UHGV virus genome: UHGV-0138423
DNA: 42,842 nucleotides
Reading direction: 5' to 3' (one strand)
Source of the DNA: a virus
Positions 1,563 through 41,362 of the stretch are shown here, one piece after another. The translations under genes and the position numbers were made by a program. Position 1 is the stretch's first letter. Every line of letters starts with the position of its first letter. The notes beneath the pieces were generated by a model. It ran no database searches. It saw only the letters and a list, made by a program, of their open reading frames with translations, and was not told where the DNA came from.

Positions 1563-3986
1563 TCACTGGCCAGACAGCGATGCCAGCATGAAATAATGCA
1601 GCTCATCATTCCTTACAGACATTATTTCACCAGCCTCCCTGACCAGCTTGCGCTCTCCGGTATCGTATTCTTCCATTGTAAGGAGTCCGTCAGGACCAAG
1701 CTCCATACGAGTCCCGTAAACCACTTCATATTCTGCCGGATATTCATCACGACACAAAATACCGTAATCAAAAGCGTCCAGCCCTTCCTCAGAGAAGACC
1801 TTCTGTACGTCCTGAGCAATCACTCCTACATGCCATCTGGCTGCGTTCCCTTTGCTGGACACTGCATCCCTGAAACGGAACCGACAGATATACCCGAGCA
1901 GCTTTCTGGCAACCCTTTTTTCTGCATCCGACAGAATTGTTTCGTCCTGTTTATGAGTCCGGTCTGATGTACTGATACTTCCCGTAGCTGAATAAACCTG
2001 TGCGGGTCGCCATGAGGCATAACCGATCGAATACGTATTATCTGTATAAGGGCGGAGATTTCCTGATGAATCTATGCGCCATCTCTTTTCTCCTCCTGTG
2101 GCATTTGCATCCTGATTCGTTGCAAAATCAATCACTGTCGCTGACCTGAACACAGATGAACCACCGCCAATTACCAGCGTGTTATTCCCCTCTGATGCCT
2201 GTTGGTCAACTACCAGTATTTTATCCTGATTTTTACCTGAACCACTTTTCGAGGCAGCGATAATACGATTAAACTGATCCTCACCATCGCTCTTTTGTGC
2301 GATGGTGATAACATTGGACCAGATTGCCTCTCTTTGTCGCTGAAAACCATATTCTCCGCTGTCTGTAGTGACAGCTTTATATTTTATTCCACCTTCAGCT
2401 GACTCCTGCGTTATATAGAATGTCTGGTTATTAGCATTCTTGATGAACACATAATTGTCAGCAGGAATGTCATTTCCACTCAGATCTTTAATCGGTGTCG
2501 TGGTTGTATGCAGACAAAACCATTTCTGACTCACAGAACGCATATATGCCAGAATTTCAGACAGGGATGTGAATACCGTCCCCAACACCGGGTTTACCAA
2601 CCCCTGGGCACTACGGGGAAATGTTCCAATACTGGCATGAGACACATCAAACCCCGTGTACAACCAGGCTGCCTGACGAAAATCAATAGCATCTCTGCCA
2701 GTACTGAACTCTTTCATCAGAACAATTCCTTTCTGATAAGCCTGTGGTAACCCACGCTCCAGAAAGATATAAAGCGAATATATACTGCCGCCGTCGTCAG
2801 AAATACAAATTCCTTCGTTCTCAATGCGCGAAGGTGTAAAACCCTGCCTGGTAAGCACATCTATCATTTTTTGGGGATGAAGAATGGATTCCTGCTGCTT
2901 TACTCCATCCGGAGAAAAGACCTTAACCCCCTGAAACTGGTTAAATCCGGCTGATGCCCCGGTATTAAAATAGCCACCATAAGAACAGGCAATATAATCG
3001 TCTCCCACAGCAATTCCCTGACGTTTTGTGAAGCGTCTTGCATAGCTGTCTGTGCTTTCCGTGATATATCCGGAATCATGCAACGGTAATGTGAATGTCC
3101 CTGTCCGACGAAACTGAAAATCATACACCGCAAATACTGTGCGGGTGATCAGGCCTCCCACTTCCGGCGCTGACTGTTCAACCACCCAGCGGTTTTTACG
3201 ATAGCTGAACTGGTTGTAAACACCGACATCATGTTCATCAATTAACGGCAATACTGAACCAGAAATTGCCCCATCAAGCGAAAACTGTTTCAGTAATCCA
3301 TTTTCTCCTGACATGAACAAACGTAATCCACCGTAATCCGTTGTCACCACAAGGCCTTCGCTGACAACGCCACGACCTCCATTATCGACATAATAATATC
3401 CCTCATATTCGCCGGATGTTGTGTACTGAACTATAACGTTCCGTGTCTGCTTTGGCTCAACGGTATAACTCAGATAGATTTTTTCTCCTGTCACCACAAA
3501 TCCCTGTGGATACATATATTCCGCACCAGACTGAGCAGCCAGCACCGTATCGTAGTCCGGGAATAATAACGGCAATTCCATTAAGACACTACGGGAATGG
3601 TTAGTGTACAGATTGTTCAATGAACCAGCTTTTACATCCTGTAACCCCAGATTTTCAAGAGCGCGTTCTACCGTGCCATCCGATTTGATATCGCCAAACG
3701 GATTCTTGCGGCTCAGGTATTCAACAGCAAACCCCGATCCCAGCAATTCAACAAAACCGGGCAGATCACCATTATCAAGCACATCCCGTTGCGTTTTATC
3801 ACTTACAAACTGGGCCAGAGCTGCAGCAATAAAGCTGGCCTGCCGAATAACCTTATTGACTTGCGCACTGGATGCTTTACCTGCTGTAAATCCGGATAAA
3901 AGCGCAGGCAACGCTTCCCATTCCTCCTGCGACATAACATTGGCATTTTTACCCGTTGCGAATGCTTTAAAGTCATTTTTTGCCAT
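1563..3986 (-). CDS. Tail fiber / tailspike protein with C-terminal intramolecular chaperone (peptidase S74-like) domain
   Basis: 807 codons from the ATG at 3984-3986 (MAKNDFKAF...), overlapping the upstream stop as TGATG. C-terminal ~110 aa (..RVARKLLGYICRFRFRD...HVGVIAQDVQKVFSEEGLDAFDYGIL...) resembles the self-cleaving chaperone domain of endosialidase-type tail fibers. Last gene of the tail operon. Confidence 0.75.
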   Translation of the reverse strand: MAKNDFKAFATGKNANVMSQEEWEALPALLSGFTAGKASSAQVNKVIRQASFIAAALAQFVSDKTQRDVLDNGDLPGFVELLGSGFAVEYLSRKNPFGDIKSDGTVERALENLGLQDVKAGSLNNLYTNHSRSVLMELPLLFPDYDTVLAAQSGAEYMYPQGFVVTGEKIYLSYTVEPKQTRNVIVQYTTSGEYEGYYYVDNGGRGVVSEGLVVTTDYGGLRLFMSGENGLLKQFSLDGAISGSVLPLIDEHDVGVYNQFSYRKNRWVVEQSAPEVGGLITRTVFAVYDFQFRRTGTFTLPLHDSGYITESTDSYARRFTKRQGIAVGDDYIACSYGGYFNTGASAGFNQFQGVKVFSPDGVKQQESILHPQKMIDVLTRQGFTPSRIENEGICISDDGGSIYSLYIFLERGLPQAYQKGIVLMKEFSTGRDAIDFRQAAWLYTGFDVSHASIGTFPRSAQGLVNPVLGTVFTSLSEILAYMRSVSQKWFCLHTTTTPIKDLSGNDIPADNYVFIKNANNQTFYITQESAEGGIKYKAVTTDSGEYGFQRQREAIWSNVITIAQKSDGEDQFNRIIAASKSGSGKNQDKILVVDQQASEGNNTLVIGGGSSVFRSATVIDFATNQDANATGGEKRWRIDSSGNLRPYTDNTYSIGYASWRPAQVYSATGSISTSDRTHKQDETILSDAEKRVARKLLGYICRFRFRDAVSSKGNAARWHVGVIAQDVQKVFSEEGLDAFDYGILCRDEYPAEYEVVYGTRMELGPDGLLTMEEYDTGERKLVREAGEIMSVRNDELHYFMLASLSGQ

Positions 3987-25604: not shown

Positions 25605-25764
25605 AATGACGCCCTCTGGTGGTTTCTAAACCATCACCACCGTCAGGTTCCTAATCATCGGGTGGTGAGACGTACAGGGTTAGGAACTACCGGGAAACCA
25701 ACCGGCGAGCTTTTCAGCTCCCCCATACGCCCCACCATAATTCAGATGTGCGCGTGCATACGAC

Positions 25765-25789
25765 AATAAAAAACACGCTCGCGGCGTGT
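25765..25789 (-). terminator. tR'-like intrinsic terminator downstream of the late promoter
   Basis: Minus-strand RNA ACACGC-CGCGA-GCGUGU followed by UUUUUUAUU, about 60-80 nt downstream of the predicted pR' start. Confidence 0.55.
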
Positions 25790-25851
25790 GTCTGTCGCGG
25801 TCTCTATCCGGGGTTCCTAATCCCGACGCCAGATTTTGCTGGCGCGTGAGG

Positions 25852-25881
25852 AATATAGCCCCGAATAACAGATTGAGTCAA
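25852..25881 (-). promoter_or_regulatory. pR'-like late promoter overlapping the Q stop codon
   Basis: Minus strand: -35 TTGACT (plus 25876-25881), 18 nt spacer, -10 TATATT (plus 25852-25857); same position relative to Q as lambda pR'. Confidence 0.45.
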
Positions 25882-27877: not shown

Positions 27878-28033
27878 TTACTCCTCAGGTTCGTAAGCTG
27901 TGAAGACAGCGACCTCCGTCTGGCCGGTTCGGAGTCGTACCTCGCAGAGGTCTTTCCTCGTTACCAGTGCCGTCACTATGACGGTTAAACAGATGACGAT
28001 CAGGGCGATTAACATCGCCTTTTGCTGCTTCAT
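27878..28033 (-). CDS. hok: Hok/Gef-family type I toxin
   Basis: 51 aa from the internal ATG: MKQQKAMLIALIVICLTVIVTALVTRKDLCEVRLRTGQTEVAVFTAYEPEE, essentially identical to E. coli HokD/RelF as I recall it. Confidence 0.8.
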   Translation of the reverse strand: MKQQKAMLIALIVICLTVIVTALVTRKDLCEVRLRTGQTEVAVFTAYEPEE

Positions 28034-28292
28034 AGCCTGCTTCTCCTTGCCTTTCGGCACGTAAGAGGCTAACCTACGTGTGTAGAGCATAGATATGGCC
28101 TCAGATTAATGTTAAGCGTCTTGCCGGACGCGTAATGTTAACTGGGGCTTTTCTCTATCTGCCTTTTGGTGTTCATGCCTGAGACAGATAGCCTCAAGCA
28201 CCCGCAGTTATTCTACTTAACTAAGATTTCCCCGCAAACCGTTTTTGTCCGGCACAGTAAATATCCAACTAAACCAATGGCGTTCGCTGTAT

Positions 28293-34197: not shown

Positions 34198-34617
34198 ATG
34201 GAAAAAGAAAACGAAAAAATTGCCGCTAGTAGGCTCAATGACAAAATTGCAATGCGTCTTAAAGAGCGCAGGCAGAAGCTTGGTTTATCTCAAGGAAAAC
34301 TTGCTGAAATCTGCGGATGGACGCAATCGCGTATAGGTAACTATGAGGCGGGCAGCAGAAATGTTGGAGTGCATGACGCTGTCGTATTGGGAAAGGCACT
34401 TGGCATATCTCCTCCTGAGCTCCTCTTTGGAGAACAGGAATCTTCTGAATTGTGGTTAAATGAATCCCAACGAAAACTTCTTGAGTTGTTTAACCAGCTA
34501 CCGGGCTCAGAACAACAACGAATGATTGAGCTATTTGAAGTCCGGCTAAAAGAAATCGATGAGTATGTAGAAAAATATTTGAGAGGCAGGCTTAAAGATA
34601 ATCCCCCACCGGAGTAA
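34198..34617 (+). CDS. racR: Prophage repressor (RacR-like, cI-position)
   Basis: 139 aa with N-terminal XRE-type HTH (..LGLSQGKLAEICGWTQSRIGNYE..) and a C-terminal helical domain; divergent from the Cro-like gene. Confidence 0.75.
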   Translation: MEKENEKIAASRLNDKIAMRLKERRQKLGLSQGKLAEICGWTQSRIGNYEAGSRNVGVHDAVVLGKALGISPPELLFGEQESSELWLNESQRKLLELFNQLPGSEQQRMIELFEVRLKEIDEYVEKYLRGRLKDNPPPE

Positions 34618-34647: not shown

Positions 34648-34671
34648 AGCCCGCTATCAGCGGGCTTTTTT
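34648..34671 (+). terminator. Intrinsic terminator after the repressor gene
   Basis: AGCCCGC-TATCA-GCGGGCT followed by TTTTTTG. Confidence 0.6.
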
Positions 34672-34922: not shown

Positions 34923-35075
34923 ATGGATACTATCGATCTTGGCAACAACGAATCTCTGGTATGTGGCGTGTTTCCCAATCAGGACGGCACGTTTACCGCG
35001 ATGACGTATACCAGAAGCAAAACGTTTCAAACTGAAGCTGGCGCGCGTCGCTGGTTAACCAGAAACACTGACTGA
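34923..35075 (+). CDS. ydaF: YdaF-like small protein (DUF1391)
   Basis: 50 aa from ATG with GAGG RBS: MDTIDLGNNESLVCGVFPNQDGTFTAMTYTRSKTFQTEAGARRWLTRNTD; matches Rac YdaF as I recall it; first gene after the pL-like promoter. Confidence 0.6.
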   Translation: MDTIDLGNNESLVCGVFPNQDGTFTAMTYTRSKTFQTEAGARRWLTRNTD

Positions 35076-35086
35076 TGAGGTTGACG

Positions 35087-35461
35087 ATGGAATTTAAAGA
35101 TTTACCAGTACCATTCCAGGAAATGGCATCGAATGTGGTTCGCTCTCAACTGGCGACTCTTGACCTGAGTACCGTAGAAAAAGAAACCATCGATACTATA
35201 TCCGGTAACGTGCGTCGTGCCTTTATCGGTCTGTACGAAGAGAAGCAGCTCTCTGATAACCAGGATTTACATGAAAAATACTTCCTGGAATTAATGGACA
35301 TCCTTAATAAAGGATTTGGCTTGTTAATGAAAAAGAAAGGGATTCGAATAGCTCCCCTTGAAAATCATTTTACAGCAAGCAGTATTAATTCCTGTGATTT
35401 AAAGCATCACACATCCGATGGGAAAGTTGAATCAAACAACAAAATATCAATTAATCATTAA
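35087..35461 (+). CDS. Hypothetical protein occupying the sieB position
   Basis: 124 aa from ATG with GAGG RBS (MEFKDLPVPFQEM...); soluble-looking, no family recognised. Confidence 0.5.
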   Translation: MEFKDLPVPFQEMASNVVRSQLATLDLSTVEKETIDTISGNVRRAFIGLYEEKQLSDNQDLHEKYFLELMDILNKGFGLLMKKKGIRIAPLENHFTASSINSCDLKHHTSDGKVESNNKISINH

Positions 35462-35763
35462 TTTATTCACAGGTGAGGTAGAGTGCGTGCGCCGGACACG
35501 GATAAGAATCCGGCACTGACAGTTTACTGAAAAGGATATATCCCTGAAAAGTCAGGGCATAACGCGAAAGCGCACGGCGAAGTTCGTCTCTCTGTAGGTA
35601 GTCGTTAAATTTAATTCGACCGTGCGCTTCCGGTTGTGGCAATCCGCGAAATGGCGCGGCGGTAAGTATGGCGGGGTTATTCCTTCCCCGCTGAGGACAC
35701 CGGGTTGTCAGGTTGACCATACGCTTAAGTGACAACCCCGCTGCAACGCCCTCTGTTATCACT

Positions 35764-35802
35764 TTTCTGGTGATTCGGCGGAAACGGATATCCGCCCTTT
35801 TT
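35764..35802 (+). ncRNA. dicF: Candidate DicF-family sRNA (ends at an intrinsic terminator)
   Basis: Begins UUUCUGGUGA and ends GGCGGA-AACGGAUA-UCCGCC CUUUUU; same 5' seed and 3' terminator context as E. coli DicF as I recall it, with a shorter middle. Sits upstream of the kilR-like gene inside a stop-rich, hairpin-dense segment. Confidence 0.5.
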
Positions 35803-35985
35803 AAAGTGAATTTTGTGATGCGGTGAATGCGGCTATGCGCACGCGGAACAGTTAAAGCAGTAAGGCGGTATTTTACGGGCGTAACGAGCATCAACTAATC
35901 CGGCGTTAATTGTTAACTGGTTAACGTCACCTGGAGGCACCAGGCACCGCATCGACAAAATTCATTTGTAAAAATGGAGATAATT

Positions 35986-36207
35986 ATGATTGCTCATCAC
36001 TTCGGAACTGATGAAATACCACGTCAGTGTGTGACCCCTGGTGATTATGTTCTTCATGAAGGTCGGACATATATCGCCTCGGCAAACAATATTAAAAAGC
36101 GGAAACTTTATATTCGTAGCCTGACTACAAAAACATGCATTTCTGACTGCATGATTAAAGTCTTCCTCGGTCGTGATGGTTTACCTGTAAAGGCGGAGTC
36201 ATGGTAA
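35986..36207 (+). CDS. kilR: KilR-like cell-division inhibitor
   Basis: 73 aa from ATG after GGAGA ([31 protein letters not shown]...); size and position (between sieB-position and ydaE) as Rac kilR. Confidence 0.55.
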
Positions 36208-40986: not shown

Positions 40987-41181
40987 ATGCGGTATGAAAA
41001 AGTCAAACCATGTCCGTTTTGTGGTTGTCCATCAGTAACGGTGAAAGCCATTTCAGGATATTACCGCGCAAAGTGTAACGGATGCGAATCCCGAACTGGC
41101 TATAGTGGAAGTGAAAAAGAAGCACTCGAAAGATGGAATAAACGAACTACTGGAAATAATAATGGAGGTGTTCATGTATAA
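40987..41181 (+). CDS. ralR: Restriction alleviation protein (Lar/RalR family)
   Basis: 64 aa: MRYEKVKPCPFCGCPSVTVKAISGYYRAKCNGCESRTGYSGSEKEALERWNKRTTGNNNGGVHV; Cys4 zinc-ribbon; matches Rac RalR as I recall it. Confidence 0.8.
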   Translation: MRYEKVKPCPFCGCPSVTVKAISGYYRAKCNGCESRTGYSGSEKEALERWNKRTTGNNNGGVHV

Positions 41182-41362
41182 AATTACTGCCACTATTGAA
41201 AAGGAAGGTGGCACTCCTACTAACTGGACAAGGTACTCAAAAACAAAATTAACCAAATCAGAATGCGAAAAAATGCTCTCAGGTAAAAAAGAAGCAGGCG
41301 TTTCCAGAGAGCAGAAAGTAAAGCTGATAAATTTTAATTGCGAGAAGCTTCTGTCCTCGTGA
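41174..41362 (+). CDS. ydaC: YdaC-like small protein (DUF1187)
   Basis: 62 aa from ATG after GGAGG (MYKITATIEKEGGTPTNWTRYSK...); position between ralR and xis as in Rac. Confidence 0.5.
   Translation: MYKITATIEKEGGTPTNWTRYSKTKLTKSECEKMLSGKKEAGVSREQKVKLINFNCEKLLSS

Follow-up and report, generated by a model that had tools for sequence, protein, structure and literature searches.

A probable mosaic dicF-type leader with a minimal slot allele upstream of kilR in a lambdoid prophage

The stretch of DNA analyzed here (the window) is the virus genome UHGV-0138423, 42,842 nt long, a lambdoid prophage whose sequence is identical to part of Escherichia coli strain C25 (NZ_CP127314). We studied the leader between a 124-aa gene and kilR, the gene of an FtsZ-directed division inhibitor. 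An initial annotation, made from the letters alone, had noticed a DicF-like small RNA (sRNA) in this leader and proposed that here, for a second time and independently, an sRNA directed at ftsZ is paired with a division-inhibitor protein. Our analysis argues for another origin. Very probably, homologous recombination at about 35966 has fused the leader of a dicBF-type early-left operon to a Rac-type kilR-ydaE-recE arm, and the sRNA/terminator slot of this leader carries a minimal third allele. The leader is a mosaic of known parts and not a new ftsZ-targeting RNA, because the slot RNA lacks the part of DicF that silences ftsZ.

The leader aligns over its full length, with about 90% identity, to the ydfC-dicF-dicB untranslated region of the Qin prophage of E. 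coli K-12, and phage Tritos aligns as well. The stretch 35640-35762 is base-identical to K-12 except for two positions. Homology and not chance accounts for the likeness to DicF, since the flanks of the slot and the K-12 dicF locus correspond base for base, and the whole leader is, as judged by alignment, the known "dicF" leader of lambdoid prophages. In Qin, the dicBF operon contains a long untranslated region that holds dicF (PMC5069750). Of 5426 complete E. coli genomes, 4722 contain a match to the leader, the median copy number being two.

The leader comprises modules A, B and C, with an AU-rich linker and the slot between the latter two (Table 1). In the slot, TTTCTGGTGA (35764-35773) is followed by GGCGGA-AACGGATA-TCCGCC (35777-35796) and by C and TTTTT up to 35802. 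The candidate sRNA and the hairpins listed in the initial annotation were all found in place, and the terminator scan returned the same slot hairpin, with 6 bp (5 of them G-C), a loop of 8 nt and a T-run; the predicted fold of the short allele has an energy of -10.7 kcal/mol. The candidate does occupy the position of DicF, as had been suggested, since the annotated 5' end of K-12 dicF (L003, position 2383) aligns to window position 35764. All ten nucleotides of the DicF 5' end UUUCUGGUGA are identical in the short allele, which also retains the AUCA(C/A)U context ahead of them. The DicF 5' end is created by RNase E (PMC5069750), which may cleave at the equivalent place here.

The likeness ends soon after that. 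K-12 DicF can be written as UUUCUGGUGACGUUU-GGCGG-UAUCAGUUUUACUCCGUGACUGCUCUG-CCGCC-CUUUUU and the RNA of the window as UUUCUGGUGAUUC-GGCGG-AAACGGAUAU-CCGCC-CUUUUU, so that only nucleotides 1-10 and the GGCGG/CCGCC-U5 terminator base are common to both. The interior of DicF (about nt 21-47) and nucleotides 11-15 (CGUUU) are replaced in the short allele by a hairpin of 20 nt, and DicF with its tail comprises 58 nt, while the short allele has 39 nt including the U-tail. Rfam models were applied to the whole window at the gathering threshold and to 35300-36100 permissively at E<=10. The DicF model (RF00039) matched nothing in either scan, in contrast to K-12 dicF, which scored 76.7 bits; a third allele (L010) scored 43.5 bits, the gathering score being 48. 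The slot thus carries a different allele, which is outside the DicF family both by model score and by all target-pairing features. The alignments point to an un-annotated third, minimal allele of a slot shared by DicF (in Qin) and KilS (in Rac).

The initial annotation noted a 5' seed shared with DicF. This end is not the ftsZ seed: genetic data assign the pairing with ftsZ and pykA to the 3' part of DicF and that with xylR to its 5' part (PMC5069750). Complementarity to the ftsZ translation-initiation region resides in the DicF 3' part, the sequence of which is absent from the short allele. For canonical DicF, the predicted duplex energies are -22.9 kcal/mol with ftsZ (nt 32-53), -23.6 with pykA, -33.4 with manX and -20.7 with xylR (nt 6-25), while the short allele reaches only -10.9, -12.0 and -12.8 kcal/mol with ftsZ, pykA and manX, respectively. 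Its xylR duplex is strong (-22.3 kcal/mol), but it forms at a different site and through a hairpin arm. The validated xylR site (+9..+21) pairs at -15.8 kcal/mol with the single-stranded 5' segment of canonical DicF and shows no pairing with the short seed; it requires GGUGACGUUU, including nucleotides 11-15 (CGUUU), which are altered in the short allele. In a coarser rescan against ftsZ, 59 of 60 shuffles of the short allele were as good as its own duplex (-10.4 kcal/mol) or better, that is, the predicted pairing is below chance. Local duplexes were used throughout, as full-length RNAduplex predictions against 160-nt target windows yielded long loop-ridden hybrids led by GC ends. By sequence, the pairing regions of all four validated DicF targets (ftsZ, pykA, manX, xylR) are lost in the short allele.

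The sRNA KilS (b4833) is annotated upstream of kilR in the K-12 Rac prophage. It has been verified by Northern blotting, is Hfq-associated in RIL-seq and has its own reported transcription start, with yncL as the only target reported (PMC8175672). KilS ends about 175 nt upstream of kilR at an intrinsic terminator, its 3' end (L269, position 2406) being the last T of the T-run in GGCGGCAUCAGUUUUUUUCUUGAAGUUCGGCUGAUGUCCGCCCUUUUU, and is followed by a structured untranslated region near-identical to window 35803-35985. The terminator base of KilS and the flank downstream of it have homologous counterparts both at DicF and in the window, which makes the three RNAs alleles of one slot. Moreover, the 5' end and promoter region of KilS (L269, about 2480-2520, minus strand) are homologous to window 35606-35643 at the boundary of modules A and B, that is, to the 3' end of A (35606-35632) and the first nucleotides of B. 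An internal promoter at about 35606-35620 could drive a transcript of about 180 nt over module B and the slot; the consensus scan did not flag one.

A survey of 270 loci from IMG/VR, GTDB genomes and GenBank phages shows at least ten classes of slot hairpin interior between near-invariant flanks, with a DicB-like or a KilR-like gene downstream. All slot alleles keep the terminator base and the T-run, but not the interior. The short allele is present in 442 of the 5426 E. coli genomes (about 8%), O157:H7 among them. In O157:H7, strain 510016 and others it is followed by dicB; joined to kilR, it was seen in strain C25 only, a singleton mosaic in the complete-genome set. Canonical DicF followed by KilR is found in phage Evi and in two IMG/VR contigs (L029, L031). 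The O157 copies match the window only to 35966, where homology passes over to Rac-type, kilR-type sequence, and therefore the join lies within the conserved 3' end of the leader. Since Rac KilS fills the same slot and the canonical DicF/KilR combination occurs elsewhere, the pairing of the short allele with kilR is not independent, as the initial annotation had it, but a product of recombination within the conserved leader.

Further slot alleles with other interiors, some also with other 5' linkers, were observed in IMG/VR and E. albertii (L010, L105, L139), in the Shigella phage 75/02 Stx (L134) and in Ayreon and Stx2c phages (L131/L132); none of them is annotated. One of them, GGCGGCAUCUGUUUGCCCAUGAACUGAUGUCCGCC (L010), is the allele that came close to the threshold of the DicF model.

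Module C, which follows the slot, was derived by RNAalifold from 15 diverse copies as a structured 5' untranslated region (UTR) of the division-inhibitor gene. Its closing helix has 21 bp (35805-35825 with 35945-35966) and ends just before the GGAG of kilR; it encloses a pair of conserved hairpins and, at about 35860-35905, a centre that is hypervariable. RNase III yields a 72-nt form of DicF, whose end lies 19 nt past that of the 53-nt form (PMC5069750). Because this end falls within the 5' strand of the closing helix, the helix is, by analogy with dicBF, a likely RNase III site. The centre of module C varies between copies in both length and sequence while its ends are near-invariant, which makes it a second variable cassette 60-100 nt past the slot.

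Module A, delimited by alignment to K-12 Qin and phage Tritos, holds two hairpins, GCCGGA/TCCGGC (35491-35496/35509-35514) and CCCTGA-AAAG-TCAGGG (35542-35547/35552-35557). Module B stands out as an independent BLAST block that occurs on its own in Stx2c phages, Ayreon, 2H10 and the "dicF-like region" of phage P1. Neither A nor B matches any Rfam model in the permissive scan. Module B folds into three helices, H1 (35644-35648/35655-35659), H2 (35670-35676/35686-35692) and H3 (GGGTTGTCA/TGACAACCC, 35702-35710/35730-35738). In per-sequence folds, one position of H2 is G-C, U-A, C-G or A-U in different copies, and H2 contains G-U pairs on the plus strand; H3 shows a compensatory change from U-A to C-G, its 19-nt loop GGUUGACCAUACGCUUAAG being nearly invariant. 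When 45 distinct sequences were aligned by fitting them to the model, 93.8% of the cells were paired and six pairs changed on both sides, with a covariation score of 0.145 compared to 0.079 in shuffled alignments (0 of 500 reach the observed value) and at most 0.059 in slid controls. Of 151 distinct copies of module B, 147 have a terminator hairpin within the next 35-72 nt.

A pattern scan of genome contigs for the H3 loop yielded 14 loci, in Escherichia, Shigella, Trabulsiella and three metagenome-assembled genomes. The contigs of the latter (L143, L144 and L146, labelled Bacillota, Veillonella parvula and Collinsella) carry exact E. coli-type or P1-type dicF-leader sequence, most likely a binning contamination by Escherichia prophage or P1-like DNA.

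As the initial annotation had stated, the leader is non-coding, relatively GC-rich and structured. Plus-strand open reading frames (ORFs) within or overlapping it are only 33-37 aa long, the GC content is 0.53 over 35500-35874 compared to 0.34-0.47 in the flanking genes, and the 523-nt segment folds with -193.9 kcal/mol against -163.1 +/- 7.2 in dinucleotide shuffles (z = -4.3; none of 100 shuffles equals it). The claim that the terminator implies either read-through into kilR or a downstream promoter stands in its first part, if the window behaves as published for dicBF (PMC5069750); as for the second, a sigma-70 consensus scan flagged no promoter-like site within the leader.

Taken together, these data suggest the following mechanism, modelled in part on DicF, whose biogenesis involves RNase E, the terminator and RNase III (PMC5069750). 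If the operon behaves like its homologue dicBF, transcripts started at the repressor-controlled promoter ahead of the ydfA-like gene would in part end at 35802. The operon layout suggests that read-through transcripts would carry kilR, ydaE and recE, and, again by homology with dicBF, RNase III would cleave this read-through RNA in the module C helix. More speculatively, RNase E might trim the terminated RNA at about 35763/35764, leaving a hairpin RNA of about 39 nt. On this reading the short RNA is no ftsZ antisense regulator, and the prophage inhibits division through the KilR protein alone. The short allele is most likely a leaky terminator that may release an RNA of about 39 nt.

This account also has points against it. 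The U-tract is short (C, U5, then AAAG), and therefore termination could be weak; the species of about 39 nt, its Hfq binding and the efficiency of the terminator are all what we infer. A KilS-homologous internal promoter may, judging by the alignment with Rac, alter the way in which the small RNA is made. The pairing energies come from 22-nt sliding local duplexes without accessibility terms, a crude metric, as canonical DicF itself only modestly beats its own shuffles on it (4 of 60), and the ftsZ, xylR, pykA and manX sequences are those of K-12 and not of the host strain. For module B, the model-fitted alignment is biased towards structure, and a plain MAFFT alignment did not settle covariation, since H2 was misaligned in it and H1 and H3 are near-invariant. 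Finally, the mechanism is incomplete as to module B, which could serve as a scaffold for processing or stability, control the terminator or form the body of a primary sRNA of about 180 nt.

Among the alternatives, it is hardly credible that the leader is a coding region or a pseudogene. A minus-strand ORF of 143 aa with a TTG start exists at 35463-35894, and a "hypothetical protein" is annotated there in some phage records. However, this ORF is not conserved: the homologues, 476-497 nt long, differ by indels whose length is not divisible by three, and the longest stretch free of stops in them is anywhere from 65 to 161 aa. The G-U pairs of H2 fit the plus strand only, and the K-12 annotation has no gene at the homologous position. 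A degraded sieB, ydfC or dicB is no better supported, as tblastn with the K-12 SieB, YdfB, YdfC and DicB proteins (E<=10) found no remnant of them within 35463-35985; for SieB, this is the outcome of the pseudogene check proposed in the initial annotation. A functional DicF orthologue that blocks ftsZ translation, forming a second sRNA/protein inhibitor pairing, is only slightly less improbable. It would explain the DicF position, the identity of nucleotides 1-10 and the same terminator context and flanks, and DicF is annotated in the homologous segment of phage Tritos. Nevertheless, the covariance model, the absence of the genetically mapped ftsZ-pairing part and the shuffle test described above all speak against it. 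By a check that the initial annotation itself had proposed, the lack of a DicF model match refutes this reading. It is also unlikely that module B acts in cis as a regulator of the terminator, either a put-like antiterminator or a ligand- or protein-sensing attenuator, and so sets read-through into kilR or dicB. The regular occurrence of a terminator after B, the covariation of its helices and its place just downstream of repressor-controlled promoters in P1 (Pban) and Ayreon would fit such a role, and no N-like antiterminator gene was recognised in the operon by Pfam/PHROG-type domain matches. On the other hand, HK022, whose put sites define that class, yields no significant match to the B model (best score in the whole genome with filters off 8.7 bits, E = 0.21, outside the early regions), inspection revealed no conserved alternative pairing of B with the arms of the terminator, with the linker between them being the most variable part, Rac keeps the slot, module C and kilR without B, and the short U-tract alone could account for read-through.

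Two other readings concern the slot itself and are more probable. In one, which we consider quite conceivable though somewhat short of an even chance, the slot works only in cis, as a leaky terminator (attenuator) by which the toxic kilR arm is kept at a low level of expression, and is a decayed DicF/KilS allele whose sRNA function has been lost. The conservation of the terminator base and T-run rather than the interior is in line with this, as is the short allele being essentially a bare terminator; moreover, KilR as well as DicB is toxic, and dicBF is a documented case of partial termination (PMC5069750). A pure terminator, however, needs neither DicF nucleotides 1-10 nor the upstream RNase E context, both of which are perfectly conserved. 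In the other, somewhat doubtful reading, the short allele is a distinct trans-acting Hfq-dependent sRNA with targets of its own, recognised via the seed UUUCUGGUGAUUC and/or the loop AACGGAUA, so that the slot would harbour a seed-swapped family. Here the kept nucleotides 1-10 argue for some retained function, the allele is almost unchanged in its 442 genomes, O157:H7 and E. albertii among them, the slot varies strongly while its flanks are near-invariant, two of its alleles (DicF and KilS) are proven sRNAs, and the basic layout is that of Hfq-binding sRNAs, in which a single-stranded 5' part precedes a GC hairpin and a U-tail. Against this, just 13 nt are unpaired, the tail has only five U, none of the four validated DicF pairings is retained, and uncompensated stem changes in variants (GGCAG...CCGCCA in L184) look like relaxed constraint. 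A broader and more tentative version of this idea would see in the dicF locus a general "sRNA launch platform" that lambdoid and P1-type phages share, in which B lies upstream of a terminator with swapped interiors and linkers; B would then represent a new class of cis-acting processing or termination-control elements, and the short allele an uncharacterised sRNA with its own targets in O157:H7 and the other E. coli carrying it. If true, each prophage would fire a differently targeted small RNA from the same chassis.

Table 1. Features of the early-left region around the kilR leader, in window coordinates.
Feature	Position	Strand	Evidence or remark
Helix-turn-helix (HTH) repressor gene	34198..34617	+	head of early-left arm; Pfam HTH_3, E = 4.7e-13
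ydfA/ydaF-like DUF1391 gene	34923..35075	+	PF07151, E = 7.9e-28; 84% identity to K-12 YdaF
124-aa gene, function unassigned	35087..35461	+	phrog_6937; no Pfam match
Leader without conserved ORF, ~520 nt	35463-35985	+	
Module A, 5' part of leader	35463..35632	+	alignment to K-12 Qin and phage Tritos; minimum-free-energy fold
Module B, conserved structured RNA, three helices	35633..35755	+	independent BLAST block
AU-rich single-stranded linker	35756..35763	+	holds position equivalent to the RNase E cut that makes the DicF 5' end
sRNA/terminator slot, short allele, 39 nt	35764..35802	+	UUUCUGGUGAUUC-GGCGGA-AACGGAUA-UCCGCC-CUUUUU
Module C, structured 5' UTR of division-inhibitor gene	35803..35966	+	RNAalifold, 15 diverse copies
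GGAG ribosome-binding site of kilR	35976..35979	+	directly 3' of module C closing helix; read from sequence
kilR, FtsZ-directed division inhibitor, 73 aa	35986..36207	+	annotation of the Prokaryotic Genome Annotation Pipeline (PGAP) in the identical record NZ_CP127314

The kilR-like gene is genuine, its product being 94.5% identical to K-12 KilR and matching phrog_294 "Kil" with E = 3.5e-36; downstream of it, on the plus strand, there are a ydaE-like gene, a hypothetical gene and recE. At the other end, the HTH repressor is only weakly DicA-like (28.7% identity to K-12 DicA by tblastn), and a terminator-like hairpin was found 3' of its gene (34648-34666, terminator scan). The DUF1391 gene, whose nearest relative is Rac YdaF, is the first gene of the operon that holds the leader. 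The 124-aa gene adjoins the short slot allele upstream also in O157:H7 Z563 and in strain 510016, the two other genomes inspected, where it is inserted between ydfC and the leader, with dicB downstream. The statement that the leader replaces sieB is true in a positional sense only: the immunity region is Qin-like and not Rac-like in gene order.

Several other regulatory RNAs of the window exceed the Rfam gathering threshold. On the minus strand, C4 antisense RNA (25658-25742), isrK (25768-25845) and the c4-a1b1 target element (25805-25858) form a module at 25658-25858 that corresponds to immI-like antisense control of the P1/P7 type, within a Rac/Qin-type lambdoid prophage. The sok antitoxin RNA at 28028-28203 (minus strand, 117 bits) implies a hok/sok locus, and RalA at 41180-41358 (minus strand, 212 bits) is the RNA antitoxin in RalR/RalA, a type I system of Rac.

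For annotation, only where the 3' body of DicF is present should a DicF-like sequence before a division inhibitor be taken as a sign of ftsZ control. In about 8% of complete E. coli genomes, O157:H7 among them, a copy of the dicF locus encodes an RNA without any validated DicF pairing region, and arguments from the copy number of "multiple dicF genes" in enterohaemorrhagic E. coli should allow for such alleles. DicF and KilS, treated separately in the accessible literature, are alleles of one slot, whose near-invariant flanks mediate the exchange of modules between dicB-type and kilR-type arms. The hypervariable slot and module B are the parts most worth following up: located upstream of the slot, common also to the P1 ban leader and still unclassified, B offers a testable system for the diversification of prophage sRNA seeds. 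In 1994 Faubladier and Bouche reportedly described dicF-related sequences in Rac and other prophages. The short allele, the allelism of DicF and KilS and module B as a structured RNA are not mentioned in the accessible literature, a scope that leaves outside Faubladier & Bouche 1994, Melson & Kendall 2019, Murashko & Lin-Chao 2017 and Lobocka 2004.

Of the known systems, the DicF and KilS loci are homologous to the leader and would work alike; with KilS, the short allele has only the position and the terminator in common. The put RNAs of HK022, processive antiterminators that need no factor, resemble the leader in layout only, being structured RNAs upstream of terminators in an early operon, with no recognisable N gene. 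In King et al. 1996, put reportedly consists of two stem-loops, compared to three helices in module B. A put-like identity of B was rejected by sequence and structure, with no similarity found in the HK022 genome. Module C (35799-35993) aligns over the full length of the Rfam family STnc100 (RF02076), including the long closing helix, with 34.7 bits and E = 9.4e-6, below the gathering score of 47, and K-12 Qin and P1 give similar sub-threshold matches. The Pas/PasD and STnc100 loci, however, lie mostly near Q, lysis and structural genes and not before kil or dicB (bioRxiv 10.64898/2026.05.13.724894), and these are prophage sRNAs, while module C is a 5' UTR.

The "dicF-like region" in the leader of the P1 ban operon (AF234172, 68791-68892; L130, 2490-2619) contains module B with 77.6% identity to window 35644-35740. 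As in the window, an intrinsic terminator follows, B being about 50 nt downstream of the C1-controlled Pban promoter. Still, the P1 leader has no DicF-type seed, its terminator GCCCAUCUUCGGGUGGGC-U6 is unrelated, and downstream there are tRNA genes and ban, with no division inhibitor directly following. In Rac, KilS is located upstream of kilR, ends at a homologous GGCGG...CCGCCCUUUUU terminator and is followed by the same module C, as in the window; of its 98-nt body, only the first 25 nt or so (window 35620-35643) and the terminator base can be aligned, the interior being different. Rac also lacks module B, and the window lacks sieB. The dicBF operon of Qin, ydfABC-dicF-dicB-ydfD, has a slot in the same position, with the same first 10 nt, terminator base and T-run and with a downstream helix matching the RNase III site, and in both cases a DUF1391 gene lies upstream and a division inhibitor downstream. 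The inhibitor is dicB in Qin and kilR in the window, where ydfB and ydfC are absent and the 124-aa gene is found instead.

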